Assembly: GCA_024137785.1 (NCBI GenBank)
Contig: JAHRHZ010000020.1
Coordinates: 51,732,234 to 51,796,233, forward strand
Length of the DNA: 64,000 nucleotides
Reading direction: 5' to 3'
Origin: Ginglymostoma cirratum
Taxonomy: Eukaryota
In this document: positions 426-58,157 of the stretch, one piece after another
Layout of the letters: the number at the start of each line of letters is the position of its first letter
Position numbering within the stretch: position 1 is the stretch's first letter
Notes under the pieces: model-generated
Told to the model about the DNA's origin: nothing
Databases searched by the model: none
What the model saw: only the letters and a program-made list of their open reading frames with translations
Made by a program: the position numbers and the translations under genes

Positions 426-511
426 TGAAGGGTTTAGGCCCGAAACGTCAAGTTTTCCTGCTCCTATGATGCTGCTTGCCCTGCTGTGTTCATCCAGCCC
501 CATGCTTGTTA
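426..511 (+). mobile_element. Short Penelope-terminus-derived element, subfamily A, truncated within the hammerhead core
   Basis: tgaagggtttaggcccgaaacgtc...gatgctgcttgccctgctgtgttcatccagccccatgcttgtta. Confidence 0.8.
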
Positions 512-1411
512 GATCAGAAGAGATGATGGGATTAGCCAAAGATCTGGCAAAGTACATTTAGAGGAGGATCTTCAAGAGTTTGGCTGTAGCAAAACAGATT
601 CTGATTGACAGAGGCTGGTGACGGAGTCTTGCTATCCATTGTCCCAAGAGGGACCCAAGTCTATGCCCTAGAATGCCACACCTCATTGCATTCAAGGTTG
701 TTTTGAAAAGACTATCGAACTTCCACTCCCACTTAATTCAGGACATAATTGCTTCTTTTTTCAAAGAACCTCACTCAACCTCTTTGGATCAGGAAAAGCT
801 AGCAATATCCAACCCCCAAGCATGACATGGTCAATCTTCCAAATGACAAATCCAGTATTAATTCAATTAAAAACTCGAAATTATTCTGAATACTTTTCAG
901 AATAGTGCACAACATGACCGGAACTCTCTGCAGACCACAAGTCTCTCTCGGTATTTTGGTTGGCCCTGACAATGCATCTCTAAAGAATACAAGAAGCTTT
1001 CAAATCACTTTCATTTCTACAGAACCGGAAAAAAAAACAAAGATCTTTATAATACAAAAACAATTTTTAAAAAATGCCAAAAGTAGTGCATCACTGCATG
1101 GTTGCATCAACAGAAATGGAGTTGAGATTATTGGTGATAGTTCAGATTTTCTTGTTTGTCACGATGCCTTGGTAATCGATAAGGGGCAAAGATTTAGAGA
1201 CCCAAGCTTCACAATTAGCTGGGATTCAAAGCTTGATCTCGATTGGCTGATCACTACATCACAAGAGTACGTTCCCCACTATGTGTCTCATGATGCACAT
1301 TTGGTTCAAGAGATGCACATGATATCACGCAAATAAGTGCTCATCACTGTACATGCAAAGAATATCTTTTAACATATAACATGCCCCGTTTTACTGCAGT
1401 ATTAATCATTT

Positions 1412-3145
1412 TGCAGGATCCAGTCAACTCCTCTTTACCGTGGACATGCAATCCCTTTACACGTCCATTCCCTACCAGAAGGGTCTGAGGGCTCTCTGCT
1501 CCTTCCTGCAGCAAAGATCTAAACCGTCCCCACCCACCGCCACCCTCCTCCGCCTGGCCAAGCTGATCCTCACTCTGACCAACTTCTCTCTTAACTCCTC
1601 TCATTTACTTCAGGTCAGAGGGGTTGCCACGGGTACCTACAAGGGCCCTAGTTATGTCTGTCTCTTCATGGGGTATGTGGAACATTCCTTGTTCCAGTCC
1701 TATTACGGCCCTGCCCACAATTCTTTCTCTAATACATCATTGATATGATCGGTGCTGTTTCCCTCTATCAACCAGAGATGGAAAGTTCATCAATTTTGCT
1801 TCTGATTTTGCTTCCAATTTCCACCTGGTCTCTCTCCGAATCCTCTCTTCCCTTCCTCGACATCTGCTTCCATTGCTGGGGATAGACTGGCCATCGTTAT
1901 CCACTAAACCCACTGACTCCCACAGACTCCATCCCATCCTCTCGGTTCCACCGTCTCCGTCATATATGTTCAGATTAGGCCAATTTTGACAAGGGAGCCT
2001 CCGTCACGTCCACCTTCTTCCTCAACCAAGGATTCCCCAGCACTGTCGTCGACAGGGCCCTCAACCAGATCTGATCCATCTCCCACTCTTCCACCCTCGC
2101 CCCTTCTCTTCCCTCCCGCAACAATGATAGGGTTTCCCTTGTCCTCACTTGCCATCCACATCCTCATCCAGAAGATCATCAGATGCCATTTCTGCCACCT
2201 CCAGCGAGATGCCACCACCAGACACATTTTCACCTCCCCTCTCCCCCCTTGTCCGCCTTCCACAGGGCCCGTTCTCTCCAGGACATCCTGGTCCACACTT
2301 CCTTCACTCCCAACACACCCCCACAGCCCCGTGGCACCTTTCCCTGTAACAGGCCAAGTTGCAACACCTGTCCATTTACCTCCTCCCTCCCCAGTATCCA
2401 AGGGCCCAAACATACCTTCCATGTGAAGCAACACTTCACCTGCACTTCCCATTCTGCATTCGCTGCTCACATTGTGGTCTCCTCTACATTGGGAAATGGA
2501 GATTAGACTGAGTGACCACTTCGCTGAACATCTACATTCCGGCCACAAAAAGGACCCTAAGCCTCCAGTTGCCTGCCACTTTAACGCACCACCATGTTCC
2601 CTGACTGTGTTCCACCATGTCTGTGTCTGGCTAGCTGCAGTGTAAGAGTGAAGCTTATCGCAAGATGGAAGAACACCAGCTCATTTTCTGCTCAGGGACC
2701 CTGCAGCCCTCCAGATTCAATATTGAGTTCAATAATTTTAGGACCTGAACCCTCCCATGTCCCAGCCCCCTACCTCACACACCAGGCCTTGTTACCACAT
2801 AGTGACTAATAATAGGTTGTGTGTATAGGCAAGCTAACAGTCCCTATTAACAACTATTCACCATCCCAGCTTGATCGTTATCAACTCCTTTGTCTGTCCA
2901 ACTGCTCTTCATTCTCTTTGGACTCTATCCCCACCTGTTGTTTACTCCTTACCCACCCTCCACGCTATGACGACCCTATCTTCTGCATATAAACCAACAT
3001 TTTCCTAGCTACCATCAGTTCTAAGGAAGGGACCTGAAACTTTAACTATGATTTTTCTTCTCAGATGCTGCCAGACTTGCTGAGTTTTTACAGCCATTTC
3101 TGTTTTTGTTCCCGAGTTACGGCATCTGCAGTTCTTTCAGTTTTT
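1412..3145 (+). mobile_element. Decayed, 5'-truncated Penelope-like retroelement (RT, Zn knuckle, GIY-YIG, terminal repeat)
   Basis: RT motifs DMQSLYTSIP...TNFSLN...QVRGVATG...GPSYVCLFMGYVE; linker GTFPCNRPSCNTCPF; GIY-YIG remnant FCIRCSHCGLLYIGK (2452-2496) followed by DHFAEH. Many frameshifts. Ends in the terminal repeat at 3015-3145. Confidence 0.88.
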
Positions 3146-6100
3146 AAAGATTTTCTTCTTTGTTGACCCACTTAAGGGATACGGGCTGGCTGACGATTTA
3201 GGCATAGAAATAGATCTTGGGGAGGATCTTAAAGAAGGAGCAAGAGGTAGAGAAGAAGAGGTTTAATGAGGGAATTCCACTTTAACACTTAGGTACACTC
3301 CTGCCACATGGCGAGACAACAAATATCAGATCACATCAGCAGTTGAACTTATTTAGTCAAAAGTTAGACTCAGAATTAAGCAACTCAAAAATGGCCCCTC
3401 ATCGAGGTTCAAGGATTCTGAACAAGCTTCCTTCAGATTGACTATACCACGGTCTCAACTTCCCAAATGACTCTCACACTGTGAGGCCTCATCCAGCAAT
3501 CTCTGCAGAGGGAGCGGCCCTCTGCCTGTTCATCAGTTGGACGGAAAACCCTCCAAATACAGCAAACCCAACATTGGATGGTGACAGTGTGGGGAAAGAG
3601 GGTCGCCCCAAATTTATTACAAGATCCAGGCACAATTAACAACAGCTCCTTTGGGTGCTGCAGAATGGTCAAGGTGAAGAACGAACAGTGAAGAAATTAT
3701 TTGATGCGGCTTTAACAAAGCCTGGATTGCGTCTGGAAGCTCATAAGATAGAAGCTTCATTTATACAGGCAAAGTGAAGCCTGCTTTCAGTAGATCTCAG
3801 ATGTGACAGCGCAGCACTCCAAGGGCTGAGAAAGAGTACAAACAGACAGAGGAATTCACCCTGCACCTCCTGTTATCTGCTTGGAGTCCTAGATTGACAC
3901 AACTGATTAGCTTTAGAGCAGTACAGAAGGCGGGTCAGACGAGAAGGCAAATAAACGCAAAAGGGTGAAAAAAATGCAGCTTTGTCAAATCTCATCAGCA
4001 CGCCTTCTACAAAACACACTCAAAGAGCTTACAAAAAGGATTAACAAAAGAAATCACTGCGGTGGCCATGGAATTCAGCTGCTGGATGCAGTGAGAAACC
4101 CAAATTCACTGAAAATGCAGCAATGTGGCTCAACAAAATTATCCAGATTACATGATAAAAGTTTAAAATGGACAGCGAGTGGAGGTTGGGTCTATTCAGT
4201 AATAAGTGGCTGTTCCGAGTAGTAAGTTGAGCCCAGGGCCATGGATACTTCTGTAATGAAGGTTCTGGAATATTACATGTTGCATGATGCACAACATCAC
4301 TTGGGGAACAGCAGGTTTGATTTATTGATTCAGTAAGTGCGATGACATGTGAGTGGTTTGACATTTAATGGTTACTTGGCTGTGGTCAATATAGAATTAA
4401 GCAATTGGGGACTGGTATTTCGCAAAACAGTCCTGGCAGAGTGAGTCAACATCAGCTAAGACTGTTGAAGACGCCGAATTCTGTTCATATCACGTAGCAG
4501 TATCTTCTCATCTGTCCAGCTTATGTCGATTCTCGGACTAGATTTCACGTCTGATGTGAAATTCAGTCAACATGCAGCATTCCCATTTCTGAAGCGTCAG
4601 CCCTAGCAACTATCAGCTACTCCCCAAACTGTGCAAGAACATCTGGCATCAGGAATCTAACCAGTTTCACATGCTTTCTGAGAAATGCATGGATCTTTGA
4701 AGTGTGATACATGGCATGTGATTTTTTTTTCATCCCTCCCCAGCCAATAATTCCAACAGTAAAATTCCATCATCTATAAATCACCTCAGTGCCTTCTCGC
4801 TTCAAACCTTCCTTCTCTGGGGAATATCAAGCCTCGGGGTTTCTCAGAGGAAAACAAAATATGCTCATTTGACAAATCACTTGCTCACGGTCAGTGGGGA
4901 CAAATACTGGATGGATGACCTACCATATGGACTGCAACGGCTCAAGATGGTGGCTGACCACACTTTCTGCTGGACAATTAGGGAATAAATGGGAGTAAGT
5001 GTTGGATTAGCCGGCATCGTCCACATAATAGATAGAGACCTGGTCTAAAAATTAGCACAAGGGGCCCTTCACTGGCATAACCAAGACTGAAGTCGAACAA
5101 TCCAAATCGCATTCATGGCTGTTTGACATCAACTCATTGAAGTACATCAGGGTAGTGGTTATGTTACTGGACCAGCAATCCAGGAAATGAGAGTTCAAAT
5201 CCCATGACAGCAGTTCGAGAATTAGGCTCCAGTTTTAAACCAAAAATAACATCGAAAATAACTTTAAAAATGTTGGTATGCTAAACGTCACCACAAAGCC
5301 ATCAATTCTTTTGTGAAAGCTAGCTGGCTTACTGACTTTCACTGAAGAAAATCATTTTATCTCATTAAGGCTACGCGTCGCTGAATTTTATTTCTTTTCT
5401 TCACATGGCCTAGCAGTTGAATAAAGTTTGGACAATGAGAGTAGCCGTTGCTAGTGATGACCACATCCCAAATGAATCTCTTTTTTTCAAACTTGACAAT
5501 AATTCCCAGTTGAAAAAGTTCAGCACTGTACACTGCTGCCAGACCTTGACCACAACAAGTGACTCAAACTGTCCCATTCGCCTTGGAGTTTAAGCAAGTT
5601 CGTCTGAAAAATGATTCTTGGCAGAAGGACGCAACATTCCTCCGGCTGCTCTCTCTGCAGAGATGCTAAGTCATTGAGACAAATGGGCTTACACCCGGAC
5701 AAAAGGAGTGGGCAAGGAATGTCATACAGAGATGTTAAGTGACTGTCCGCTGATAGCAGGGACCGTAGCTGCTGTCATTTGGTATTATGCAAAGTTAGCG
5801 CGGTGATCCTGCAGCAGCTACACAAGACAAGGTAGAACGCAAGCAAAATGTAAACACGAGAGAATTGGATTCGGGGAAGTGGGTGTGGGGAATCACTTCA
5901 TGGAATTGAGAGTTAAAATATTAGTCGAGCAATACAAGGAAGGATCACTGCTGTGCATAGAATTTATATCCAGCTTTACTATTTTAACTCAAATCAAAAC
6001 AGGCACTCAAAATGCTTAAACTGAGCCGATCATATGCACTGTTATCTGCTCAAAATAAAGTGTCAGCAGATGTGGACTACTTCAGAGCGAAGACAGAATT

Positions 6101-7101
6101 TTTCACTCTGCACTCCTTTGGCAAACTTTCCAACTCCGTACATAGTTTCCAGATTCCATGCTCTTTTGACTCTGGCATCTGGGGTGCAGTAATTATTTAC
6201 ACGTACTTGGTTGAAGAACAGAAACCGAAGGGCCTCGAGCAGAGTGCGTGTCGTACAGCAGCCGTGACACTCAGCACAAGAAGTGACGAGCCTTCAGACT
6301 GGCTCTCACCACAACAGCTTCAGAAAGCAAGCCATTAGAGTCGAATCTAGGTCAGGTCATGTTTAACTTGCTTACAAAAAGACATTGACACAAGCCTAGC
6401 ATCCATATTCTCGCTTCAATGAAGAAAATAGCTTGCAGTATTGCCCAGCACCTGGCTCACAATGTAACGTTTCCTGGATTGTAGTACTGATGGTGTCACG
6501 CAATGATCTTACCTTTCACCTTCAGATTACACTGTGCCCTCACAGAAGGCACTTGTATGCAGTTCTTTTGCCCTCAGTTTTAACGGATGCATTAACCCAT
6601 TTAGTTCAAGAGGGTTAGAGCCTCTATTAAAATAGCAGGCAAATGTACCAGGCCTTCATGCACTGATACCGGTTCAGGATAACTTTAACACACTTGTTAC
6701 GTGGTGACATATCTCCAGCATAGTGATGCTGTGTGAATTTGAGAGATAGCTGAAAACCTTTAAAGAAAGAGCAACGCTTGTCAAAGGAATATTCAAGATT
6801 CCAATCTGGCAAGTAACACTTTGTGGAAAGCATTGCCAGAATTGTTAAAGCCACAGGTCAAAAGTCACGTTTTCGGACAACTAAGTATGAATCTGTGAAG
6901 TAGCAAGCTCGAGAGAAGTGGATCACACAAATCAAAGACCATTACTGATCCTACCTTGGAATAAGTCAATGTTGCAGCTTGATTCGCTGCATTCTTGGTA
7001 ATCGCGCTATTGTAGAGGTCTAGCGATAAGTTCTGCCCATTGGTAAACTATAAGTCGAGTCATCCGATGAGAACCAGCTTGATTTTAACACTGCCATAGC
7101 A

Positions 7102-7240
7102 CAGAATGATAGAAACCTTACTGTTTGAAAGCAGGCCATTCGGCCCATTGAGTCCACTCCATCCCTGTAACCCGCCATTTCCCAAGGCTAATTCCCATAG
7201 TCTGCACATCCCTGGACACGATGGGCGATTTAGCACAGCC
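7102..7240 (-). mobile_element. HE1-like V-SINE, 3' fragment
   Basis: aagcaggccattcggcccattgagtccac...ctgcacatccctggacacgatgggcgatttagcacagcca matches the tails of the full copies. Confidence 0.75.

Positions 7241-7406: not shown

Positions 7407-7435
<29 letters not shown>
7407..7435. repeat. (CA)n microsatellite
   Basis: acacacac... run. Confidence 0.95.
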
Positions 7436-16971: not shown

Positions 16972-18910
16972 TATGAGACTAAACTTGCAGGGAACAAAAA
17001 AATTGACGGCAAAAGCTTCTATAAATATGTGAAGAGAAACAGATTAGGAAAGACAAATGCAAAAATCACAGAATCTCTACAGTGTGGAAGCAGGCCATTC
17101 AGCCTATCGAGTCCACATCACCCTCCAAAGTGCACCTCACCCAGACCCAGACCCATCCCCCTACTCTATCCCCGTAACCGCATATTTCCCATGGCTAATC
17201 CACCTAGCTTGCACATCACTGTCATTATGGGTAATTTAGTGTGGCCAATTCACCTAACCCACACACATTTTTTGGACCGTGGAAGGAAACTGGAGCAGAT
17301 GGAGAAAACCCACGCAGACATGGGGAGAATGTGCAAACTCCACACAGACAGTCACCACGGGCTGGAATCGAATCCAAGTCCCTGGTGCTGAGGCAATGGC
17401 GTTAACCACTGAGCCACCGTGTCACCCAGATAGTCAGAAGCCAGGGAAATTATATTGGGGAACACAGAAATGGCAGAAGAATTTGATACTGTTTTCACAG
17501 AAGAGGACAGAAATACTCTCCCAGAAATAGGAGGGAACCAAGCATCTTGTGAGGAGGTGGAATTAAAGGGAATATTTATTAGTCAGAAAATGGTGCTCAG
17601 GAAATGCATGAGGTTACAGACTAACACATCACCAGGGCCTAACAATCCACAATGTACAGTACTAAAGGAAGCTGCCCTGAAAGTATTGGATACATTTCCA
17701 AACTTGGATAGACTCTAGAGCAGTTCTTACAAATTGGAGGGTGGGAAATGTACTCCACTGTTTCAGAAGGGAGGGAAAAGAAAATAACAGAATTCCAGAC
17801 CGGTTAGCCGAACACCAGTCATGAGGAAAATACTCATCTATTATAAAAGATGTGACATCAGAACATTTGGAAAGCATTAACAGGATTAGACAAAGCTACC
17901 ATGGGTTTATGAAAGGCAAATCATTCTTAATGAACCTTTTGCAGTTTTTGGAGGATGTAACTTGTAGAATATTTAAGGGAGCATCAGTGGACGTGGTATA
18001 TTTGGATTTTCAGAAGGCTTTTGATAAGGTCCCTCTTAGGAAGTTAGCGGGCACAATGAAAGCACATGGGATAGGGGATAATCTTCATTGCACATTGGTT
18101 GACAGACAGGAAACAGAGGGAGCGAGAATGAATGGGTGTTTGAAGTCATACATTTTGGCATTGAAAAGCAGAAAGGAAGGAGATTATTTAACGGGGATAT
18201 TTTGGGGAGCATGGATGATGTATAAGAGATCCGGGCGTCCTCGTACACCAGTCAATGGAAGGTAGGTGCGGGAAGCAATTAGGAAGGCAAATGGTATATT
18301 GGCCTTCATTGCAAAAAAACTGGAGTTCAGAAGTCAGGATGTCTTACTCCAGTGAAGTAGAATAGAGGTGAGACCACCCCTGTTGTGCCATGTGCAGTTT
18401 TCATCTTCCTATCCGAGAGAGAATATACTTGCCACAGACGGAGTGCAGCAGAAGCTCTTTACCTGATTACAGGGCCGCGGTGTGAGGAGGGATCGGCTTG
18501 GTTGGGCCTGTATACACTAGAAGTTAGAAGAATGAGGGGGGATCTGATTGGAACTCAGAGAATTGTAACAGGGCTGGACAGACTGGATAAGGAGAACAGG
18601 TTTTGCCTGGTTAGAGATCCAGAACTAGGAAACGCCATTTCAGATTACAGGATACACAATTTAGGACTGAGGTAAGGAAATATTTTTTCACTCAAAAGGT
18701 AACGAACCTCAGGATTTCTCTACCACAGAAGACTGTGGAAGCCAAGTCACTGAATACATTCGAGACAGAGAAGTTTTTAGATATTAAATTCATCAAGAGG
18801 TGTAGGGAGAAAGCAGGAATTTGGCATTGAGACAGAGGGCCAGTCAGACATTATGAATGACAGAGCAAGTTCAGAAGGGCCAAATGGCTTCCCTTCTTGT
18901 TTCTAGTTTC
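16972..18910 (+). mobile_element. Decayed CR1-clade LINE (ORF2 RT and 3' end)
   Basis: HGFMKGKSFLMNLLQFLEDVT...VDVVYLDFQKAFDKVP; LGLYTLEVRRMRGDLI; CR1 tail gggccaaatggcttcc. Frameshifts and deletions. Confidence 0.9.
17064..17427 (-). mobile_element. HE1-like V-SINE nested in a CR1 LINE
   Basis: Same structure as the other copies; interrupts CR1 ORF2 between KSFYKYVKRNRLGKTN and MGNTEMAEEF. Confidence 0.88.
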
Positions 18911-21762: not shown

Positions 21763-21895
21763 TTCAGAAATTCTGAAAAGGGTCCCGAGCCGAAACGTCA
21801 GCTTTCCTGCTCCTCTGATGCTGCCTGGCCTGCTGTGTTCATCCAGCTCCACACTGTGTTATCTCTGACTCCAGCATCTGCAGTTATGCTATCTC
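21763..21895 (+). mobile_element. Short hammerhead-type element, subfamily A
   Basis: ctgaaaagggtcccgagccgaaacgtcagctttcctgctcctctgatgctgcctggcctgctgtgttcatccagc...ccagcatctgcagtt. Confidence 0.8.
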
Positions 21896-22040: not shown

Positions 22041-22145
22041 CTCTGAAGATGGGCCGCTGGACATGAAGCATTAATGCTGTTTTCTCTTCACCAGATGCTG
22101 CCAGACCTGCTGAGTTTTTCCAGCAATTTGTGTTTTTGTTTGGTT
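22041..22145 (+). mobile_element. Short hammerhead-type element, subfamily B, degenerate
   Basis: ctgaagatggg...cagatgctgccagacctgctgagtttttccagcaatttgtgtttttgtt. Confidence 0.75.
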
Positions 22146-24230: not shown

Positions 24231-26275
24231 AATGCAAAAATGAGCATTTTGAATCATTATAAAAGCATGGTTACTAAGATCTTAGTCAGACTGAAGTTAT
24301 TGTCGGGGTCAGTTGGCACAAATCTCGTCTCAGTCAAAGAGGTTTTGGGCTCATGAGCTCTCAGGAGGCTTGAACAAACAATGTAGCCTGAGAGCCAAAA
24401 GCAGCATAGACTGCGAACCTCCAGAGCTACTGGACTTTGGATGCTAATCAGAAGCCCCTTTGGCAGTCCCAGGCAAAATTAAAAAGATCCCACTGCATTT
24501 TTTTGAAAAAAGGAGTGTGGGACATTATGAGGTTATGCAACATGCTCTACGAATGGGAAAGTGACTTTTTTTTTTGAGAATAACAGATCTGAAATGCACT
24601 GCCTAAAAAAGGGTGGTGGAGGCACATTTGGTACTCATTTTTCCCAAAAGAGAATTGGATACAGACGTGGAAATTTGAAAAATTGCAGGGATATGATGAA
24701 AGAGGGGCAAGGAAACTAAAGCAAACCACTGTAAATGTTGAAAATTTGAAAAAAAAAAACTGAAAATGCCCAAGAAGGCAAGCAACAATTACGGAGTTAG
24801 AAACAGGATCAACCTTTCAGGTTGATGACCTTTCATCCATTGGAATGCCTCCAAGCTGCCAGTATAGAAATGCCAGGCCAAATGCCTCCATCTGTGCTCT
24901 CTGACTAACTTATAATAATCCCCAAAGATGGGAACAAGGGAATCTGCAAAAGAAACACCAGATGTTTGGGCTGAATTTTTTCAAAACTCCAATAATTAGG
25001 TCAGGGTTATAAAAACTGGCAAGTGCGATCAGAGCTTCTTAAAGTGGAAAACCAGATTATCTGGGAAATATCTGGCCAATCTTTTCTCAATCATTGAGAC
25101 ACAAGTGGTATCCATCGCACAAGGTGAAATTATCGAGAACAGGTAGAAGAATGAATTAATCACGGTCCTTTACCACATGCTGGATCAATCTTCAAAGGAA
25201 TAAGAGGTGCATGTCTTACTGTGTTTTTTCCTGGGCAACACAATGTTCTAAGATGGCTGAAGGTGGAGGTCAAAGGTCACAATCTACAAACAGTGCCAAA
25301 AAGCATCTTGGGATTATTCCCTCCAAATTTTGCCTTCTTTTCCAGTTGACTTTACTCAATCGCTTCGAAGATGTCAGGGTGTCTGACCCTTGGGGAACAT
25401 ATATGCACAAAGGGTGCTCCCTTGTTAGCCAGTAAAGGAGGAGGCTTATTCAAGACATTGATTGCAGTGACAACATTTCAGCAATATTTCTTTTAAACAC
25501 ACACTCGATGGTCTAAATACTATGTACTTCATCATTTAGAAAATAAAATTATCATCAATTATTCTCATCAGATGAATACCGCAGTAGCCAAGTCAAGGAA
25601 TTCAACTAGTCATCGGACTCTCAACCATAGCGTCTAACCATTATATCGCAACAGTGACTTATGTCTATTCAGTCCAAATCCAGACAATAATGAAGACAAA
25701 ATGGGGTTTAAGTCAGGAAATTGAAAAACAATTTCAATGCATTAAAAAGAAACAATTTGAACAACGTGAGATTCTACAACACTGCTGGGTTGAATTCATG
25801 ATTTTGGTGAGCAGTCACTCCTTCCCTAAACTTTCGTTGTAATTGTACTCACCGTCTGATTTGGATGGGTGAGACAGAAAGCAAAGTTTTCACATCTTAA
25901 AGCATGTCTGCCCCCGTTAGATGAAATCACTATGGTCGATTTGCACGGTGTGGATCTTCCCCAGGATTGCTTTGTGTCGTTTGCGTCTAATTTACAAGCC
26001 AAGAATCTGTGGCCTTGTGAATGGCAACAAAATTTGGCCACAGTGATGTCATTGTAACCGCACTGTACCACAAGAAAGACAAGTGTAGTGCCGACACACT
26101 AAAAGACTAAATTCGGTTTCACTGCTGATTTTGGCCCCCATGCTCTTGAGAAAACAGACTCCTGCCTTGATACTGTCTGCCATATCTTGACCGACTGACA
26201 AGTGCTTGTGAACGAATCTAGGCAGTGAAGGCAACTCTAACACTGGGGACTGCTCAACCTTAAGTTCCAGTCCAC

Positions 26276-30413: not shown

Positions 30414-30637
30414 GAGATAACAAGCATGGGGCTGGATGAACACAGCAGGTCAAGCAGCATAACCTGACGTTTCAGGCCTAAACCCTTCATCAGAAATGGA
30501 AAATTAAAATTTCTGATGGAGGGTTTAGGCCCGAAACGTCAGGTTATGCTGCTTGACCTGCTGTGTTCATCCAGCCCCATGCTTGTTATCTCGGATTATC
30601 CAGCATCTGCAGTACCTTTCATCTCTGATACAATTTC
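30414..30637. mobile_element. Palindromic head-to-head hammerhead-type element with 15-bp TSD
   Basis: 84-nt arms at 30414-30497 and 30509-30592 (2 mismatches). Flanking direct repeat agccctaaaaacaag at 30400-30414 and 30638-30652. Confidence 0.9.
30466..30493 (-). ncRNA. Minimal hammerhead ribozyme motif in the left arm of a palindrome
   Basis: Minus strand reads CTGATGA-A-GGGTTTAGGCCT-GAAAC-GTC. The mirror copy at 30513-30540 (+) reads CTGATGG-A-GGGTTTAGGCCC-GAAACGTC. Confidence 0.65.
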
Positions 30638-31064: not shown

Positions 31065-31190
31065 TTAAAGGCCACAGACCCGAAGTACTGATTCTGCTTT
31101 CCTCTGCTCATCAGAGCTGCCGCACCTGCTGACCATTTCCAGCATTTGTTGTTTTTATTCCAGATTTCCAGCAGCCGTAACATTTTGTTT
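31065..31190 (+). mobile_element. Short hammerhead-type element, subfamily B-like, old
   Basis: gacccgaagtactg...gctgccgcacctgctgaccatttccagcatttgttgtttttattccagatttccagca. Confidence 0.6.
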
Positions 31191-34099: not shown

Positions 34100-34485
34100 C
34101 AGTCCCAGTGGAATACAGACAAGCAAAAGGAGACGAATACAGGTTGGCATCCTGCTGGAGGTAGCGGAAATAGGCAGCTAATGATCCTGTGGAGGGTAAC
34201 AGGGTGATAGGTGAGGACAAGGGGGTCAACTGTTGCTGCTGTGGGAGGGAAGAGAGGGGTGAGAGCCGAAGTGCAGGAACTGGGTTCCTGTCAACCAGGG
34301 TGGTGGGGAATCCTCGGTTGAGAAAGAAGGTGGACATGTTGGTGGCCCCCTTGTCCAAGGTGGCATTGTTAGGACAGATGCAATGGAAGTGGAGGAACTG
34401 GCCAAATGGAAGAGAGTCTTTTTAGGAAGCAGAGTGTAAGGATGTATCATAAGGTAAGTTTGGGAATCGGGAGTAGTCACTAATA
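34100..34485 (-). mobile_element. Penelope-like internal fragment
   Basis: DKGATNMSTFFLNRGFPTTLVDR; the DNA is reverse-complement similar to ~1980-2210. Confidence 0.75.
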
Positions 34486-41841: not shown

Positions 41842-41932
41842 GAGATAAGGGTCTAGGCCCGAAATGTCAGGCTTTCCTGCTCCTATGATGCTGCTTGGCC
41901 TGCTGTGTTCATCCAGCTCTACACCTTGCTAT
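41842..41932 (+). mobile_element. Short hammerhead-type element, subfamily A, with 16-bp TSD
   Basis: aagggtctaggcccgaaatgtcagg...; tccacacagcactcaa at 41826-41841 and 41933-41948. Confidence 0.88.
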
Positions 41933-42214: not shown

Positions 42215-42345
42215 GAGATGAAGATTCATCTCGAATTGAAACATTTTAGCTTGCTCTCTCTCCATGGATACTGCCTGACCTGCTGTGATCTCCAGCATTT
42301 GTTGTTTGCAGTACAGATTCTGGCTTCTGCAGTAATTTGCTCCCA
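42215..42345 (+). mobile_element. Divergent short hammerhead-type element
   Basis: gatgaagattcatctcgaattgaaacatt...gatactgcctgacctgctgtgatctccagcatttgttgttt...tctgcagt. Confidence 0.6.
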
Positions 42346-42734: not shown

Positions 42735-43190
42735 GTGTCACCAAGGATTCTGAGTGATAGGGAACTGGGACTGGGTCAATGAATGTTTTTCAGGTTGGAG
42801 AAAGTATTGCAGTGGCATTCCCAGGGATCAGTATTGGGACCCTTGATGGTTTTGGTACAAAACGAACGGCCCAGAGCCAAGTGTACAGTACACGATTTCG
42901 CGTTTTGCAGATGATACAAAAATTGAAACTGTTGTGAGCTTTGAGGATGAATACCGCACAGCTTCAAAATGACAGACAGGATAGCACAACGGGCACGAGA
43001 TGAAATATAATGAAAAGAAGCATGAAGTGATTCAGAGACAGTGAGGACTGCAGATGCTGGAAGCCAGAGCCAAGAGGTGTGAAGCTGGAAAAGCACAGCA
43101 GGTCAGACAGCATCCGAGGAGCAGGAAATTAAAGGGTTCAGTTCTGAAATGAATGCAAAAGCAGAGGTACTGGGTTATGTATTTACATAA
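42735..43190 (+). mobile_element. CR1 RT fragment
   Basis: agtggcattcccagggatcagtattgggaccc (SGIPQGSVLGP) and tttgcagatgatacaaaa (FADDTK). Confidence 0.75.
43032..43128 (-). mobile_element. Short element of the same family inserted in a CR1 fragment
   Basis: actgcagatgctggaag...gctggaaaagcacagcaggtcagacagcatccgaggagcaggaaa; hammerhead core absent. Confidence 0.75.
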
Positions 43191-43456: not shown

Positions 43457-43596
43457 CAACTGAGGAAGGGATGTTTTTCATCCTTTCATTCACCCTTCTG
43501 AGGAAGGGTCACCGGACCCGAAACGTTAACTCCGTTTTCTCCTCCGCGGATGCTGCCAGACCTGCTGAGCTTTTCCAGCAACTTTGTTTTTGGTCC
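43457..43596 (+). mobile_element. Short hammerhead-type element, subfamily B, with 14-bp TSD
   Basis: Intact core. acacttttaaattc at 43443-43456 and 43597-43610. ctgaggaaggg is duplicated at 43460 and 43498. Confidence 0.9.
43498..43527 (+). ncRNA. Minimal hammerhead ribozyme motif, best-preserved core
   Basis: CTGAGGA (43498-43504), extra A, stem II GGGTC-ACCG-GACCC (perfect 5 bp plus tetraloop), GAAAC, GTT. Activity not shown. Confidence 0.7.
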
Positions 43597-43779: not shown

Positions 43780-44295
43780 TTGTGATCTGAAAAGGAACAG
43801 TCACTAGGGTTGTACGGTAAGGACCCAGGAACGGCATTAGAATTGCTCATTTGGAGAGTGGGTACAAACATGACGGGCTGAAAGTCCTCATTCTGTTCTG
43901 CAACAATTCCACACACAGGATCCTGGGCTTTATAAATGGGACCAAAAACACAAAAGTAAGGAAGTTAACATTAAATCTGTACAAATACAGATTAAATTGC
44001 AGGGTGCTGGAGAAACTCAGCAGGTCTGGCAGGATCGAGAGAGAAACAGGGTTAAAGTTTTGAGTCTAGCACGACTTTTTTTCGACATAACAAAATAGCG
44101 TTTGGCTCCAGCTGGAGTATTACACTTAGTCCTGCACACCAGACTTAGGAAGGGGCATAAAGATTTTCGGCAGGGAGCAGAAAAGATTTCAAAACTGGTT
44201 CCGGCGTTGAGGAACTTCAATCAAATGAACAGATTTGAGAAGCTGGGACTGATATTCCAGAAGAGAAGATGGAGAAGAGATATGATAGAAACAGA
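43780..44295 (+). mobile_element. CR1 3' fragments
   Basis: RFEKLGLIFQKRRWRRDMIE remnant; cagctggagtatt. Confidence 0.6.
43993..44085 (-). mobile_element. Short element, subfamily B-like, inserted in a CR1 fragment
   Basis: tgctggagaaactcagcaggtctggcag...gagaaacagggttaaagttt. Confidence 0.7.
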
Positions 44296-46269: not shown

Positions 46270-46820
46270 AGAGATCGCAGAGCTCTGCGACTCAATAGAT
46301 CTGGGCTGCCGTTGTGCATGAATCATAAAAGATTAGTCTGCCGGCACAGCAAGTAATTTGGAAAGATAATAGATCGTGCATCATAGGGGAACTGAACACA
46401 AAGTAGGAAGGTTGTCCTTAAGTTACACAGGGAATTGGCGAGATCTCCTCTGGTATAACTGCATACGGTATTGATCACCCCCTTTAAGGAAAGGTGTCAA
46501 TGCATTGAAAGCAATTCAAAAAGGATTTACCAGATGAAAACTTATAGATTCATACAGCACAGAAAAGGCCCATCAAGTCTGCACCAACATAACTACCACT
46601 AAAGGTGTGCGAATCCCAATTTCCTGCACTTGCCCCAGATCCTAGGAGTTGGTATGGCGGGTTGTCTTCGGAGGATAAGTTGCAACGGCTAAGCCAATAT
46701 GCATTGGAATTTAGAAAAAATAAGAGATGGCTTGACTGAAACATATAAAATCCTGGACAGCCTTGGCAGAGTAAGTGTGGAGAGTATGTTTCCTCTTTTG
46801 AGAAAATCCAGAACAAGAGT
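46270..46820 (+). mobile_element. CR1 3' fragment(s)
   Basis: LEKIRDGLTETYKILDSLGRVSVESMFPL remnant. 46545-46645 looks like an inverted CR1 tail piece. Confidence 0.65.
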
Positions 46821-47665
46821 GACAGATACTGAAGCAGTCCATGTTCAAAAGCAACAAGATCTGGACAATTTCCAGGCCTGGACTGACAAGTGGCAAGTGA
46901 CATTCGTGCCACACAAATGCCAGGCTATGACCATCACCAATAAGAGACAAGCTAACCATTGTCCCTTTACCATCACTAAACCTCCCACTATCAACGTCCT
47001 AGGGGTTATCATTGACCAGAGACTCAACTGGACTCACCACATAAACACAGTGGCTACAAGATCAGGCCACAAGCTAGGTATACTGTGGCGAGTAACTCAC
47101 CTCCTGACTGCTCAAAGCCTGTCCGCCATCTACAAGGGACAAGTCAGGAGTGTGATGCAATGCTCCCCACTTGTCTGGGGGAGCGCAGCCCCAACAACAC
47201 TCAAGAAGCTTGACACCATCCAGGATAAAGCAGCCCGCTTGATTGGCACTACATCCACAAGCATCCACTCCCTCCATCATCAACCCTCAGTAGCAGCAGT
47301 GTGTACTATCTACAAGATGTGCTGCAGAAATTCACTTAACATCCTCAGACAGGACCTTCCAAACCCACGACCACTTCCATCGAGAAGGACAAGGGCAGCA
47401 GACATATGGGAGCACCACCACTTTCAAGTTCCCCTCCAAGTCGCTCACAATCCTGACTTGGAAACACATTGCCGTTCCTTCACTGTCGCTGGGTCAAAAT
47501 CCCGGAAATCCCTCCCTAATAGCATTGTGGGTCAACCCACAGCAGGAGGACTGCAGCGGTTTAAGAAGGCAGCTCACCACCACCTTCTCAGGGCAACTAG
47601 GGATGGGCAAGAAATGCTGGCCCAGCCAGCGACACCCACATCCCACAAATGAATAGAGAAAAAAA
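46820..47665 (+). mobile_element. CR1/L2-group LINE, 5'-truncated, open C-terminal ORF2 frame
   Basis: QQDLDNFQAWTDKWQVTFVPHKCQAMTI...VLGVIIDQRLNWTHHINTV...IYKGQVRSVMQCSPLVW...LDTIQDKAARLI; tail aatgaatagagaaaaaaaa. Confidence 0.88.
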
Positions 47666-50739: not shown

Positions 50740-50862
50740 GAAGATAGCAAGAACTGCAGATGCTGGAGTCAGAGACAACACTGTTTGGAGCTGGAGGAAC
50801 ACAGCAGGCCAGGCAGCATCAGAGGAGCACGAAAGCTGACATTTCGGGTAGGGACCCTTGTT
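50740..50862 (-). mobile_element. Short hammerhead-type element, subfamily A
   Basis: gaactgcagatgctggagtcagaga...cagcaggccaggcagcatcagaggagcacgaaagctgacatttcgggtagggaccctt. Confidence 0.82.
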
Positions 50863-52344
50863 CTGTGTTCCTTTAGCTCCACAATGAAATGAAAAGCAGC
50901 CACTTGGCCCATCAAAACTATATCTTCCATAAACAATGGAGTCCATTCTACGTAAATAATCTCCCAAACATTGTAAAGCAAATTCCAGAGGTTTATCTTC
51001 GATTAGGAACAAGCCTTTAATCCACTGCCAAGCTATAAACAAAACAAGCTGTTTTAAATACCTCAAATTTTACAAAACCACTGATATTATCTTGTTCGAT
51101 TTAATCACCATAATCAGGCAAATCATTCAGATAAAGGAAATGAGTGAGGAGGTGTCACCACAAAAAGGTGTGTGTGTGTAAATAGACCACTCATGATGCA
51201 GGTTGGAGCACGTCAAACCTGTTCGAGATTATTGGTATATTCACTGGCAAATAAAAAAACTGTGGGACAGTTAAGTTGGAACAAACTTAACCAATACTAG
51301 CCACACACCACACCAGATATCCAAATCCACGTCGAATTCATAACCCAGGAGGAAAACCCAGTAAAACTTGCCAATGCCACTTTCTAATTTGACTTGTTTT
51401 GTATGCCCTGCTCATTTCCAAGTATTGGTGATTGTTTAGAACTGGTTTTCCTCTCTGGAAAATGAGCAATGTGGATCAAACACAGTCATCGGGTTTGTAA
51501 TCTCAAAATTCACTTGCGTGGAATACAGACGTCCACCCTTTGCTTTTTATCTCATCACTTTAGACAGCGCAAATGCATTAGATCATTGAGAGTCCTTGGT
51601 TACCAGATGGTGGCAAAACTACTTCAGTATACACTTGAGATATATTCACCTGCATTGTGAGATTAGCTGGGTGAATTTACCACTGGAATTGTTGAATATG
51701 AGTACACCAGTGTTGCTGGAGCTATGTATGGGATCCAACAAGGAGTTTGCTTGGAAAAGGCTAGCTTAGAAATGATTGCTCGCATAACCTGGCCCTTGGT
51801 GCTATAAAACAGGCCAGCATCCCTTCCCCCATGGCCAAGAGCAAGTCTGTGGCGACACTGAGCCTCTGGTGACCCATGGGGTATTAACAGAGCAGGATCC
51901 ATTCCCCCCCCAATCAACAGCACAAGACATGCTCTCTCGACTGCAGAGTCATCCCAGCCCACAAACCAAATTAAAACACAACAACTATTTGCCTTAAAGT
52001 TTGCTCTACTGTACCTGGGGTGAAATGCTTGACATCTACTTGGCTCAGCACTTTGGAATTCTCTTCCTCCCTGTCTGTGTTTTGTTGTATTCGTATCCAC
52101 ATTAAAGAATCTCCTCACAACTTGATTGTTCTCGACCAGGCCTCGAACCACTACCACAATGTTAGCATTATGACATTGAAAATTTACTCAGATTCAGTGT
52201 TACCTGTCACAAATTTACTTCAGTAATAATCTGGACCATATTCCTTTCATCCCAATATCTAGTTTAAACTATAGGGTGGCACAGGGTTTGTGACTGGGGT
52301 TCCTTATTCTGGACACTGGTTAGGGAATATCACCTCGTAGTACC

Positions 52345-52697
52345 ACAGAATCCCTACAGCATGGGAGCAGGCCTTTTGGCCCATTCAGTCCACACTGATC
52401 CTCCAAAGTGCATCCCACCCAGACCTGTCTCCTACCATATCCCTGTAACCCTGCATTTCCCATAGCTAAGCCAACTAACTATTACATCCCTAGACGCTGT
52501 GGACAATTTAGCATGGTCAATCCACCTAACCTGCTCATCTTTGGACTATGGGAGGAAACCAGGGCACTTGGAGGAAACCCACGCAGACCGAGGAAAACAT
52601 GCAAACTCCACACAGACAGTCGCCCAAGGGTGGAATCGAACCAGTATCCCCAGCGCTATGAGGGAGCAGTGCTAACCACTGAGCCACCTATTCTACC
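52345..52697 (-). mobile_element. HE1-like V-SINE
   Basis: Same head, V-domain and tail as the other copies. Confidence 0.88.
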
Positions 52698-54712
52698 ATA
52701 CAAATTACTTTCTCTGTGTAACGGGCAAAGTGTACAAAACGCTGTATCATAAGGCAGAACTTTAGATTATCATTTAGCTTAATTACAATTTTATTCAACT
52801 GAATAAATGCACTTTTTTTTGCAGCAAGAACAATTAATTTCCCAACAATACTTGATTGTGGAAGATAAAAGGCAACTTAAGAACTGTAAACGTGACCTCA
52901 TCTTCTCCAAGTGAATTTCTAAGCTAAGTTGCTTCAAACCTAAATATAGATAGCTACTTTCCTCTGCTATACAAACACAGACCAGTCTGTAAGTGTGAGT
53001 GAATGAGAGAAGAGAGACAGAGCATGAGTGACAGACTAGCAGACAGAGCGTGAGACACAGAATGACAAATAGAGACATAATGGTTGATGGTTCAGAGGCA
53101 GCACAAGCAAAATTCAAGTTTTCCACAGACACCACCTATAAATTCCCCTGCCCCGCTGCACCCTCAGTCCCCATCTAGAGCGTGATCAGCCCCTTCTGAA
53201 GCACCCTGAGACTTCCCCTAGCTCCAAAAACTTTGCTGCTTTTGACTTGTGTTTGGCGTTATTAATTGGTCGCAGTCGTAAAGATTGAAATCAGGAGCAG
53301 TCTGCGTGCGGTATCCAAGTGCAGGCCTGATTCCATCTGTCTGCAGTGCAGTGTTCTTGAGAATGACCCTCAAGCAAGATGTCGATTTGAAATGTGGCCC
53401 TAAACAAAAAGAAAACAAAGTGAGCAGCGTTGAGTTAAAATAACGCAGAAAGCGTTAATTTATAAATACATTCCTGTAAAATGAATAATAAATCGACTGT
53501 GTTTTATCACCATTTTTATGACATTCCCTGCAGTGTGTGTCTTGGTATCCAAGGCTTCAAGCACATAGGTGAAGATAAACTGCCACAATAGTTTGTAAAT
53601 ATGAGATATTTGTGAGATTCAGATTTCATTGCCTCCCTCTCCCATCTCTCAGGACGAGCAATGCAATTCATTTCACTGCCGTTTTGAACAAATTGTAAAT
53701 AATATTGGCTGAATTAACAATCCTGTGAGCACCCTTCAATATAATTCAATTTGATCTGAATTTGATTTTGAAAGGTTCTCCAGAAAAAGAACTTAAGATT
53801 CGTCACCTCCCGTTGGCAGTATTTGAGCATTAAATGTCTCTTTCTCTGTAAACAAGGGGACCACCACAGACAGCACGGAGGGCGTACAGGTGACATCAGA
53901 AACTGAGAGGTGACCCATGTCGAATGGTCAATCAAGTTTATTTGGAAACCAGGTAAAATCGTTCAGAAGTATCTGCATTATACTTGGCACCTCGTTGCAT
54001 TTCTGAAATGCATCAAAGCTCAATTACTTTGCAGTTAAAAAAGTCTGTGTACTCTCATCAGACCAAAGAGCTGTTCTCTTATTTGAGAGACAGGGCTGGT
54101 GGCAGTTTAAGCTGGGGGTGTCATTCTGCATCCCAAACCAGCCATCCAGCCAACTGAGCTAACTGACACTCACTGGTGTTGCACAAGAAAATAGGGTGGC
54201 CGTTTTGGGCACAGTGAAATCCCACAAGCAGCAGGATTAATGACAAGATAGATTTATCTATGTGTAGAGAGGAAGAATGTTGGCTAGGACCGCAGGATCA
54301 CACCCCTTGCTGTACTTTGAGTCTCTTTTGAGGTGGTGAAAATCTCATTATGAGGACAGCAGCTCTATAATTCAATGCTCCCAAAGTACTGACTGAATTT
54401 GGGTAGCCAATCATGCAATCAGAATGCAAGAGTGCAGTTTGGCATGATGATTTTTAAATATTATGTTTAGGAAAGCTTAGTAAAAGAAAGGAGCTTAGAA
54501 GAGTTCTCAGGTATATTTTGGCTAACCTTGATGAGTGTAGACATTTTAGTAAAGAGTTTGGGAGGGGACTATGCCCTGCTTGTACATATACACCAATATA
54601 CCCACTAGATAGTCAAATGCAATCCAAATCTTCTTCTACTGTTACCCAGTTATGCACGTTAACTGTGACATAAAAGGGGTTTACCCTACAACATGATATC
54701 CATGTATTAGTC

Positions 54713-54848
54713 AGAGATCATAGGAACTGCAGATGCTGGAGAAGCCGAGATAACAAGGTGTGGAGCTGGATGAACACAGCAGGCCAGGCAGCATCCTGCT
54801 CCTATGATGCTGCTTGGCCTGCTGTTTTCATCCAGCTCTACACCTCGT
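54713..54848. mobile_element. Collapsed palindromic subfamily A element with 16-bp TSD
   Basis: A minus-strand copy is joined to a plus-strand copy with both cores missing. tatccatgtattagtc at 54697-54712 and 54849-54864. Confidence 0.88.
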
Positions 54849-55199
54849 TATCCATGTATTAGTCCTTGTGAGATACATACTGTTGTGATTTTTATTTTAG
54901 AAGTTGAAATCCTGCTGATACTGATTCTCATGAATATCAAAATACTGATACTAAAAAACAAAGTGTATGATTCATCCAACTTGTGTAGGATGTATTCATC
55001 AAAGACACAATAGAGCCAAAAGCAATCCATTCTAAAACTCTGTCACCAAAATTCAAACAGGAGAATCAGAGAATGGGAGATACCAATTATATTTAATGGA
55101 GAAAACACTCTCAAAGAAGAGGTAACTTCAGTGTTCTTGCAAAGAATTAAAAATTATGATGCCAAACCAAAAATGTGAGGAAAACTTCCATTGAAGAAG

Positions 55200-55860
55200 A
55201 CAATTTTAAAGAGACGCTAAAAGAGGAAAGGAGAGGGATTTGAAGAGGAGCAGTTTACAGACGCAATTCCAGAATTAGTGACTTCAAACAGTTGCCAATA
55301 GTGAACAAAGGGAAGTGGAATACATCAGAGACTGGAGTCAAATAAAAAAATGAATTTATTGGTTTGGAGATGTTTCAGAAGTGGAAGAGTTGACCGATAT
55401 ATTGGTAAGACCATGAAAAGATTCAAGGTGTGACAATTTTAAATTTGAAATGTTGTCAGAATGGGAACCAGCAAGGACAAGTTCGCAAGTTAGTGGCATT
55501 TAGAGGGTTTGAAGATGCGAGACCCTCATGAAGACACTAGAGTAATTGAATCTGAAAAAGACGAGGTGAGAGTTTTGTTAGCAGATGTCAGGTGAGCCGT
55601 GTTAGCAAGATAAGGAGGGAACTTTGAGATGAAGAGTATGTAGATTTATTTACAAAGTCTGCTGAAAGCTGAACAGAAGAAAATTAAATTAAAGTTGTGA
55701 CTAGCCTGATTCAGACTGAAACAACAACAAGAGGAGGAGTATGGTCACTGGCAATGGTGTGGAGTTTGAAGCAAATATGACAGTCTTAATCTTGCCAATG
55801 ATCAGCTGTGGTATATACAGCTTTAGAAAAGACTGCATGTCAGCCAAGCAGGAGTGAATG
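55200..55860 (-). mobile_element. Highly decayed L2-like LINE fragment
   Basis: Purine-rich ttttaaagagacgctaaaagaggaaagg...aattccaga...aattttaaatttga...agagtaattgaatctg pattern, typical of antisense L2 3' regions. Confidence 0.4.
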
Positions 55861-56364
55861 AGTCAGAGGGGCGGCGGAGATAATGTGGTATATAAAGTAG
55901 GACTGAGTTTCCAGAACTTCACAGGAAGACTGCCAGGTCTCATGGGGGACCATTTGCAAGCATTTAGCTTTTGTGAACCAGCTTTCAATGTGACCTCAGA
56001 GCAAGGTTATGTGCATGTTCAAGTCTCACTGTCATTAATCACTGGGCTCAAACTGCGTGAACACTGCTCACCAAAGTTTTCTGACACGAGAGAGAGAGAG
56101 TAAATTTTAATTATGTCAATCTGGCTTCCATTCAAACTTACATCCTCAAAGTGTGAAAGGCTAGACTATCTACCTATGGGGTCAAAGGGTTATCAGAAAA
56201 CTCAGACCTTCAGTTTTTATTTCATTGGTATATCGTGGCATAAATGGTTATTTCCATCCCACCCCCACCAACATGACGCCATGTCTTAAAGCTGTCAGCC
56301 AGTTATATGGTTTATCTGGATAGCACTTTGGTTCTACTCGGGACTCCTTGCTTGGAGTCATTTA

Positions 56365-56662
56365 TAGAATGACAGAATCCCTGCAATGCGGAAAGACACC
56401 ATTCAGCCCATTGGGTCTGCACCAACCCTCCAAAGAGCATCCTACCCAGACTCAGCTCCTTACCCTATCCTCACAACCCCCACATTTACCATGGCCAATC
56501 CACCTAACCTGCATGTCTTTGGACTGTGGAAAGAAACGGGAGCATCTAGAGAAAACCCACGCAAACTTGGGAAGAATATCGGAGCTGTACGGTCACCCAA
56601 GGCTGGAATTGAATCTGGGTCCATGGTGCTGCAAGGCAGCAGTGCTAACCACTGTGCTGCCA
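56365..56662 (-). mobile_element. HE1-like V-SINE lacking one internal repeat unit
   Basis: Same family; has only one ccacctaacctgca unit. Confidence 0.85.
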
Positions 56663-58042
56663 TCATTTGGTTCACTGCATTTTTTTTCCAGCATAAATGG
56701 ATTACTGTCGTAAGACTTTGTTATTGAAGAGGTTAGGGAAGGGTGGGTGATTGCAGGGTTAACTATATTCCATTTTGTACGTGACTTACACTTTCTGGAT
56801 GGCCTGAAGTCAAAGAACTATGTTCCACTTCTACATGAATATCAACCGAAGCAAGGGAACTTTACTGAGCAAAACCAACTGCTGGTAATGTGAAAATGAT
56901 GTTGAGTTGAATGCTCATTTCAACTGGGAATAAGGCAGCTCCTTTCTTATGTCAGAGTGAATTTATTGCAATGATTGGCTGTACAAATTCAGATCTCCAG
57001 AGCCACTGGGATTGGGGGAGAAAGATACTAGGGTATTTCACGGCGATCAGAAACATTGTTGAGGGGCCAAGTATCTCAAAAGCCAGCTAGAGAACCAGCA
57101 AGACAAATGCTGCTTTTTCCCCAGGGCCAACTGACTGGAATCAGGACTCCCTCCCACAAGTCCTGCTGGCCAATCAGAGGCAAGTAGCTCTTTCTCTCAG
57201 CAGCGCCCCTGAAGCAGCTGTGGCTACAGCCAGAATTGCATTCTCCCAGATCTCAGGATAAAGGGAAGTGAGGCTGTGGTGTGGGCAGCTCAGAATCAAG
57301 GTGAGAAGAATAGTTTCCAACAGGCACCCCCATATTTGATGCCCAGTCTTGTGATTAGAAACTGATTTCCTTCGATTGAGGAACACCCTCCAACCGCACC
57401 ATGATAAGCTGCCCACAAAATGGGACTTGGTAATGTCAAGTTGGTGAAATAGTGAGGGGTACTCAGAAAATGGGTGAAATTGATTGGCTTTGAACAAGCA
57501 TACAAAGGGCACAGCCGGGATACTGGCGGTGAATACTGAGGAAATCTCTAAGACTGCATCCACGTGAATGAATGGTATTTGCCAAGGAAAAGCTCTGTGC
57601 CTTTGGTTCCTCGTTCACCATGAGACCGGGCTGTAGTTAACCTGCAACTGGTTTAATCCAGTGATGGCAAAGTGAGAGTCTCTGTATAAGGCCATCAGTT
57701 GGGAGTGGGGCAGATAATCGGCTTTCCAATACACAGCTTAATTCTGGTGCAACTGGCAGTGTGACCACCCGGTCCAATTGGGTGCCCATCCGGTTGCCAA
57801 GCTTACTAGCTTTGGCAGAAGATTCTACCCATTGGGTCAAATGTGGTAGCGCAGCTGTCTCACCATCAGAAATAAGTAACGGAATGAAGATTAGCAACAG
57901 ACTTCATTATACTTGAAAACAATGTCCTTTCTGTAACATGGAAGGCTACAGAGACATCTGCTTTCCAGCTGCCCTTTTAAATTGGGACATCTCATCAATA
58001 AACAGTGTTAATGTTGAGGAGAGGCAATGTACAGGTTTTGTG

Positions 58043-58157
58043 ATAACAAGGTGTGGAGCTGGATGAACACAGCAGGCCAGGCAGCATCAGAGGAGCAGGA
58101 AAGCTGGCGTTTCAGTTCTGGACACTTCTTCAGAAAGAAATCTCTTGTTGCCCTGCC
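58043..58157 (-). mobile_element. Short hammerhead-type element, subfamily A, with 12-bp TSD
   Basis: Minus strand reads CTGAAGAagtgtccagaactGAAACGC. acaggttttgtg at 58031-58042 and 58158-58169. Confidence 0.82.

Follow-up and report, generated by a model that had tools for sequence, protein, structure and literature searches.

Short hammerhead-bearing repeats in a shark genomic window as probable pseudo-LTR-end fragments of Penelope-like elements with a fixed 5′ boundary

Introduction

Minimal hammerhead ribozymes are a known feature of Penelope-like elements (PLEs). Those described in PMC4209133 are type I motifs without helix III, with a palindromic CG at 15.2/16.2, an extra base before G10.1 and a short helix I, and they form many variable families, predominantly of scattered single motifs, "probably related to truncated PLEs". 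The same features are found in short repeats within a 64,000-nt stretch of the genome of the shark Ginglymostoma cirratum (assembly GCA_024137785.1, contig JAHRHZ010000020.1, positions 51,732,234 to 51,796,233, forward strand; hereafter the window), which an initial annotation had described as a non-autonomous, retrozyme-like family. The shark motifs differ in stem II, which has 4–5 bp against 7–8 bp in schistosome motifs; the available part of PMC4209133 names no shark and reports no fixed 5′ boundary.

The anatomy of endonuclease-bearing (EN+) PLEs (PMC8557442, PMC3846280) offers further parallels: an optional tail of 30–40 nt at one insertion terminus (PMC8557442), an inverted 5′-truncated copy, palindromic head-to-head junctions, target-site duplications (TSDs), solo pseudo-long terminal repeats (pLTRs), and a TATA box with an initiator noted in a rotifer pLTR (PMC3846280). 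PLE transcripts start in the upstream pLTR (PMC2377424, PMC6765202). The shark TSDs measure 12–16 bp, in contrast to 8–10 bp in canonical EN+ PLEs, and the shark solo ends are dominant and have TSDs, whereas several rotifer solo pLTRs lack them and were ascribed to recombination. Self-priming was offered as the explanation of the rotifer inversions (PMC3846280), whereas one shark locus, at 54713, suggests two templates. No obvious mechanism was available for pLTR regeneration and inverted ends (PMC2377424), and the later steps were described as unvalidated (PMC11167929).

For the anole Poseidon element PAc (PMC11167929), two internal reverse transcriptase (RT) start sites 3′ of the hammerhead were shown in vitro, uncleaved RNA is the dominant template, and both target strands are nicked and extended, in all of which the shark copies would be alike. 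PAc belongs to another clade, whereas the element in the window has a Neptune/Nematis-type Cys linker. The anole open reading frame (ORF) starts in the hammerhead, whereas no such start was seen for the element in the window, and run-off solo copies are not discussed for the anole in the available text. Metazoan non-LTR retrozymes (PMC7229834, 10.64898/2026.07.22.740005) are likewise non-coding, related to PLEs and pLTRs, and dispersed as monomers with a type I hammerhead and long TSDs. Unlike the shark repeats, they have tandem units, mostly canonical hammerheads and cut-to-cut processing into circular RNA, and the chondrichthyan retrozyme consensus averages 363 bp (10.64898/2026.07.22.740005), in contrast to ~85–135 nt here.

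The object itself is ordinary: knowledge of dispersed minimal hammerheads from truncated PLEs dates back to 2014, and a cartilaginous fish has already yielded reports of both PLEs and retrozymes. The literature covered holds no description of these shark elements or of fixed-boundary solo copies; Repbase, Dfam, most subscription journals, the retrozyme-preprint supplements and anole Fig. S2 were outside its scope, and the last two could contain them.

Results and discussion

Our analysis indicates that the short repeats are very likely PLE-made pLTR-end fragments and not retrozymes. They are probably solo fragments of ~85–135 nt from several Neptune-like, EN-bearing PLE subfamilies, inserted by the PLE RT and GIY-YIG endonuclease. 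The Penelope origin claimed by the initial annotation was borne out for two sequence types, in one through the copy at 3015, which is tied to an RT and GIY-YIG remnant, and in the A type through XP_059504218.1. The 3015 copy had been listed as a free short element; because it sits after a broken RT, linker and GIY-YIG frame and a 3′ untranslated region (UTR), it is rather the 3′ terminus of a 5′-truncated PLE of 1.7 kb, for which neither a TSD nor an inverted arm was found. Pfam searches on single-frame pieces of this PLE gave no match, and a homologue search and tblastn were needed to find its ORF; RVT_1 and GIY-YIG were found in relatives, with the GIY-YIG match in relative P0003. The nearest named relatives of its protein are from bamboo and zebra sharks. 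The zebra shark protein XP_059504218.1 is an RT-EN read-through whose last 16 residues best match translated A-type arms, which take five of the top six places among 127,900 translated windows. A CX2-5CxxC linker, of a type that occurs in both the Neptune and Nematis clades (PMC8557442), lies between RT and EN in the window's element and points to the Neptune or Nematis side. Mobilization by a PLE RT/GIY-YIG protein is supported by the TSDs, the tail and the inverted arms. A reading of the body as the N-terminus of an ORF found no support, as its translations matched no N-terminus among the fetched relatives (sets of 54 and 200 proteins).

All 14 elements of the initial annotation were found in the window, at the positions given there. 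A profile built from nine arms detected 17 arms at E<1e-4, equal to 15 loci in 64 kb, with a top score of 8.9 bits in 20 shuffled windows as the control. The locus absent from the earlier list (24725–24837) scored 17.9 bits and was not among the profile seeds. A sequence-only covariance model from all 17 arms recovered the same 17 and one weak match (E 0.15). The resulting density, one locus per 4.3 kb, agrees with the estimate of about one per 4–5 kb. At least two subfamilies had been proposed; several sequence types are present, so that the number exceeds two, with an A group set against a looser B/C group and three starred branches in the tree. Most copies do begin with a whole, partial or decayed core (15 core-bearing arms), with the exception of 54713, which has no hammerhead core. 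No ORF remnant adjoins 14 of the 15 loci, which are non-coding. ARAGORN found no genes in the window, a result uninformative for an origin from a Pol III-driven short interspersed element (SINE) with a tRNA/5S-derived head; no A/B box search was made on the elements. The five TSDs of 12–16 bp previously noted were confirmed as exact and as adjoining the element ends (5/15 loci, compared with 11/300 random sites having at least 12 matches), and a sixth, probable TSD of 12 bp with two mismatches flanks 50741–50884.

Based on the position of the arm starts relative to C3 of the hammerhead core, the 5′ boundary is fixed. The range from −4 to +7 takes in the starts of 14/17 arms (13 if the ambiguous 43032 copy is set aside) and the 5′ ends of 12/15 loci, for which a geometric truncation model in its most favourable case gives P ~3e-11. 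The end points are not random, which the reading of the initial annotation required. The exceptions are both 54713 arms, which start in the body, and one copy that extends 1.6 kb upstream. Comparison of the 300-nt upstream flanks of 13 arms revealed no homology, except in two pairs whose flanks run into an adjacent copy or the TSD of one. TSDs delimit six loci (five exact, one with two mismatches); the 5′ ends of the nine loci without a TSD, and the 3′ ends without a TSD, were set by eye. In the only copy that keeps the UTR, a TATAAA box at 2988 is followed 29 nt later by an initiator whose predicted +1 (3017) lies at −4 from C3, and both 30414 arms begin at −4. Such a TATA and initiator pair occurs at 8/127,900 positions and was noticed post hoc. 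Outside the window, gene model P0055 starts at the core, with the same geometry at the protein level, and P0056 has a head-to-head arrangement in which each arm ends within the 5′ half of the core. In the 58043 copy, 20 nt of unexplained 5′ sequence (58138–58157), either filler or a 5′ transduction, lie inside the TSD.

We lean towards the view that the boundary is fixed because RT runs off the 5′ end of the RNA, with promoter, start site and run-off predicted from these features. The GIY-YIG domain would nick both target strands 12–16 nt apart, and RT would initiate inside the RNA, at either of two positions ~65 and ~100 nt beyond the cut site of the ribozyme. Starting from the 5′ copy of these sites, or on RNA from an orphan 3′ end such as 3015, RT would pass the uncleaved hammerhead and run off the RNA 5′ end. 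The run-off product of 85–135 nt would be integrated alone, its short cDNA being joined with 0–11 nt of trimming, with snap-back filler, or with a second cDNA; the latter, primed from the other nick, would give head-to-head pairs. The template would be uncleaved RNA, because the copies have the core at their 5′ end followed by the body, and no end at the cut. Since the TATA box is lost and most cores are decayed, the copies would be dead on arrival.

Alternatively, cDNA begun at the 3′ pLTR could have undergone ordinary 5′ truncation and reached the same end point if the hammerhead were a hot spot, whether through the structure of the RNA or cDNA, the pyrimidine-rich UTR or EN trimming at ATT. 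PLE copies are highly 5′-truncated, and single minimal hammerheads have already been ascribed to truncated PLEs (PMC4209133). PAc prefers nicking ATT near the ORF-pLTR junction (PMC11167929), and ATT immediately precedes the core in A-type arms. Their 5′ region forms a hairpin of −10.6 kcal/mol, and 7-bp snap-backs occur in 2/15 arms, a marginal signal (p=0.012 each, uncorrected). However, a structural stall should halt RT on entry, at the 3′ side of the structure, and not after read-through. B-type arms have neither ATT nor that hairpin pairing, yet they share the end point; no copy besides the 1.7-kb one enters the UTR; and the homology boundary coincides to the base with the TATA-spaced initiator. 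We consider a truncation hot spot unlikely.

Several observations weigh against run-off from a promoter-defined RNA end. The TATA and initiator match comes from one copy of one subfamily and was seen after the clustering of the 5′ ends; for the A type, there is only a P-I-Y tripeptide 10 codons upstream in XP_059504218.1, which is compatible with a TATA box; and Drosophila virilis Penelope has a TATA-less internal promoter (PMC2377424). Nine loci have 5′ ends called by eye, the 30493 arm may reach a few bases beyond −4, and the 43457 and 58043 copies have an additional 41 and 20 nt, respectively, on their 5′ side. No full partial-tandem PLE (pLTR-ORF-pLTR) is present within the window, and the annotated N-terminus of the bamboo shark relative P0054 does not match the body. 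Furthermore, the two-template signal described below comes from one locus with two common diagnostic sites, picked after inspection, and the 19-nt deletion private to the 30414 arms is common to both, which differ at 2/83 sites, and fits better a deleted master with one template or snap-back copying than two templates.

The family-level motif is a minimal hammerhead, consisting of CUGANGA, an extra base, stem II, GAAA, palindromic 15.2/16.2, UH and a short stem I. Cores were aligned by hand because MAFFT put the B types out of register. Over 13 arms, 46/52 stem II cells are paired, compared with a background mean of 2.5/4 at other GAAA sites, and this pairing was matched in 1/100,000 draws, a p-value that is optimistic, as the copies are related. 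Hand alignment revealed four double-sided changes in three arms; an automatic register gave eight (2/20,000 shuffles), with three arms in a different register, and the hand count is safer. Covariation across the subfamilies, and with it the proposed minimal type I hammerhead, is thus supported. Three arms (3015 and both 30414 arms) retain the 5′ strand of stem I, and in each of them the stem is complete. The stem II covariation and complete stem I thus show that the parent elements maintained the motif. Most copies have lost it: among 15 core-bearing arms, CUGANGA is kept in four, GAAA in 12 and UH in 12, all three are intact in two (43498 and 30493 minus), and only the 30493 arm also has a 4-bp stem I, leaving a fully intact hammerhead in 1/15 arms. 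The ribozyme is best explained as a passenger selected in the parent elements, and not as the engine of the short copies.

Rfam scoring did not recognize the motif, with no hammerhead match at E≤10 in three scans (the whole window and two focused scans); the best Rfam matches were microRNA (miRNA) models on palindromes, below the gathering score. For the intact arm, the predicted energy of the hammerhead fold is −1.2 kcal/mol as a monomer and +0.7 as a dimer, in contrast to −10.6 and −31.4 kcal/mol for the best folds. Such a disfavoured fold would agree with reports that PLE hammerheads have low activity or are assisted by protein (PMC4209133, PMC11167929). On the minus strand at 30460–30497, pairing of the A-type core with its own cut-site region can give an inactive hairpin, which is possibly an off state that would need protein to refold.

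Retrozymes would be formed from tandem transcripts cut by the hammerhead into monomers or circles and then reverse transcribed by a PLE RT. The repeats share with them a type I hammerhead, TSDs longer than 4 bp and a lack of coding capacity; retrozymes, which derive from pLTRs and have dispersed monomers, have been reported from one chondrichthyan genome (10.64898/2026.07.22.740005), and the 43032 junction lies 2–5 nt from the cut under one reading. Against this origin, none of the 10 rows of Tandem Repeats Finder (TRF) is a tandem array of the element's unit, and the neighbours 21771 and 22041 differ in type and are separated by an unrelated spacer. No arm (0/17) begins exactly at or ends at the cut, with 43032 ambiguous, and because the core stands at the 5′ end, upstream of the cut, the permutation is wrong for a self-cleaved monomer. 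The ribozyme is minimal, without stem III, and its fold is disfavoured as both monomer and dimer. A retrozyme origin is thus highly improbable, and the "retrozyme-like" description did not hold. At 43129–43150, the core of the 43032 copy is readable as inverted, with both breakpoints within 2–5 nt of the ribozyme cut; as a cleavage footprint, the only possible one, this reading was not significant.

Both the 3′ ends and the inversions belong to anatomy already known for PLEs. Of the 17 arms, eight have their 3′ end 11–17 nt beyond the conserved body motif, eight 45–62 nt beyond it, and a single old copy 34 nt beyond it, so that two classes are separated by ~34 nt. The longer class carries the optional PLE tail of 30–40 nt (PMC8557442), explained by two internal RT start sites as in the anole (PMC11167929). 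A head-to-head inverted arm was significant in 3/15 forward arms (30414, 50737 and 54713), with scores of 28–90 against a null maximum of 26 in 1000. At both 30414 and 54713, the tail is present in only one of the two arms. [quoted passage not shown]

Side features were also seen at the 3′ ends. Each class ends at a similar distance past a repeated TCCAGC motif, a candidate RT-positioning signal. In tailed arms, such as at 21819–21882, the body start is complementary to the tail start over a conserved 7–8 bp; this stem is 84.5% paired, yet its covariation was not above shuffles and RNAalifold preferred another weak helix. A pyrimidine tract followed by CAG, with the appearance of a splice acceptor, is present at 3100–3135 and in the tails of other arms. 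PLE pLTRs can hold introns.

At 54713, two arms lie within a single 16-bp TSD (54697/54849). Over 44 nt, no difference separates the minus arm from the 58043 copy. The plus arm shares two diagnostic bases within this stretch, and one more slightly upstream of it, with the 41842 copy. Placement of both arms in one clade was rejected (AU p=0.02), for one locus chosen after inspection. This composition suggests that both nicked strands were primed on two RNA molecules rather than by self-priming, which the anole protein would allow because it nicks both strands and is predicted to form a dimer (PMC11167929). The mixed pair could also result from nested insertion or gene conversion. A 27-nt stretch of the target site, TSD included (54686–54712 vs 54838–54864), is 85% similar to the short 3′ end of the element, hinting at primer-template microhomology.

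A dedicated non-autonomous, SINE-like PLE family would comprise a few solo-pLTR masters, transcribed and amplified in trans by PLE protein. It would account for the high density (15 loci per 64 kb), the fixed ends, the TSDs, the ratio of short copies to ORF-bearing pieces (14 vs 2) and the 19-nt deletion in both 30414 arms, which is absent from their relative 426. Non-autonomous PLEs exist in Chlamydomonas (PMC8557442), and pLTRs alone can mobilize DNA in trans (PMC3846280). However, the solo copies have no TATA box or common 5′ flank, and the 19-nt deletion is found at no second locus. Because identical boundaries recur in several diverged subfamilies, two of which are linked to the 3′ ends of autonomous-type, ORF-bearing PLEs, a dedicated family is not required, and we regard it as improbable, to a degree close to that of the truncation hot spot and marginally less so.

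In its full form, our proposal is tentative and may well fail in part: shark PLE RNAs would start 4 nt before the hammerhead, with stem I as their first four bases; a strong-stop-like cDNA from internal RT initiation, which would normally jump to build the pLTR, would usually be captured alone; and both nicked strands would be primable on different RNAs by a PLE dimer. If true, the shark genome holds very many dated footprints of each PLE integration step, which would explain pLTRs and head-to-head inversions. Given the fixed 5′ ends at a predicted start and the head-to-head insertion of two subfamilies, run-off and two-template priming are testable by counting copies in existing shark assemblies. 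Such copies are open to mis-annotation as retrozymes, MITEs or miRNA hairpins, and to being absorbed into gene models.

Table 1. Positions of the PLE-related copies and associated features in the window.
Feature	Position	Strand	TSD	Details
A-type short copy	426..512	+	none	Starts at core U7; short 3′ end
Broken 5′-truncated PLE ORF remnant	1407..2742	+		RT motifs, C-x4-C-xx-C linker, GIY-YIG region; tblastn with relatives; frame changes near 1710, 1980-2075 and 2450; linker visible in ORF 2075..2506
TATAAA box in PLE 3′ UTR	2988..2993	+		29 nt 5′ of initiator +1; motif match only
Initiator-like site	3015..3021	+		Predicted +1 at 3017, 4 nt before hammerhead C3; motif match only; doubles as 5′ strand of stem I
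B-type hammerhead remnant, body and tail	3017..3145	+		3′ terminus of long PLE copy; altered G5, loss of 7 nt from stem II
A-type copy with tail	21763..21895	+		7-bp snap-back at 5′ end
B-type copy	22042..22140	+		Core decayed; short 3′ end
Old diverged copy	24725..24837	-		First stem II pair is A-U
Head-to-head A-type arm pair	30415..30637	.	15 bp, 30400/30638	84 nt, 98% complementary; both arms start 4 nt before C3 and have the 19-nt deletion; minus arm is the only complete minimal hammerhead, with short-site 3′ end; plus arm has tail
Diverged B/C-type copy with tail	31066..31190	+		
Second PLE ORF scrap	34149..34448	-		Without hammerhead end
A-type copy	41842..41932	+	16 bp, 41826/41933	Starts at stem II; 6-7 nt before start read as inverted stub of short 3′ end
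C-type copy with tail	42217..42341	+		Stem II with two double-sided changes
A-related copy with tail	43034..43150	-		Core ambiguous: decayed forward or inverted
B-type copy	43457..43596	+	14 bp, 43443/43597	Catalytic core intact; stem II 5 bp; 41-nt 5′ filler has 11-nt direct copy starting at C3 and 7-bp snap-back
Decayed C-type copy	43995..44082	-		Short 3′ end
A-type copy with tail	50741..50884	-	Probable, 12 bp, 2 mismatches, 50729/50885	24-nt head-to-head inverted 5′ arm
Head-to-head pair without hammerhead	54713..54848	.	16 bp, 54697/54849	Arms match different subfamilies
A-type copy	58043..58157	-	12 bp, 58031/58158	Starts 3 nt before C3

The window also contains minus-strand exons, some of them PDZ-like, of a vertebrate gene with RING and TRAF/Sina fingers (41180–40413, ~36220–36130 and ~14790–14685), which we take to be PDZRN3/4-like. 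Seven of the loci lie downstream of exon 1 of this host gene (five antisense, one sense and one palindromic), too few to reveal a bias. A further repeat family, ~350 bp long, whose members combine a tRNA-like head with a tail of short repeats, is present at 7094, 7731, 8766, 17063, 26278, 52344, 56363 and 63647, and presumably resembles the elasmobranch HE1 SINE. Remnants of RT similar to that of long interspersed elements (LINEs) are located at 17825–18265, 46693–47652, 58489–58830 and 59525–59833; the one tested, at 17825, gave an RVT_1 match below the curated cut-off.

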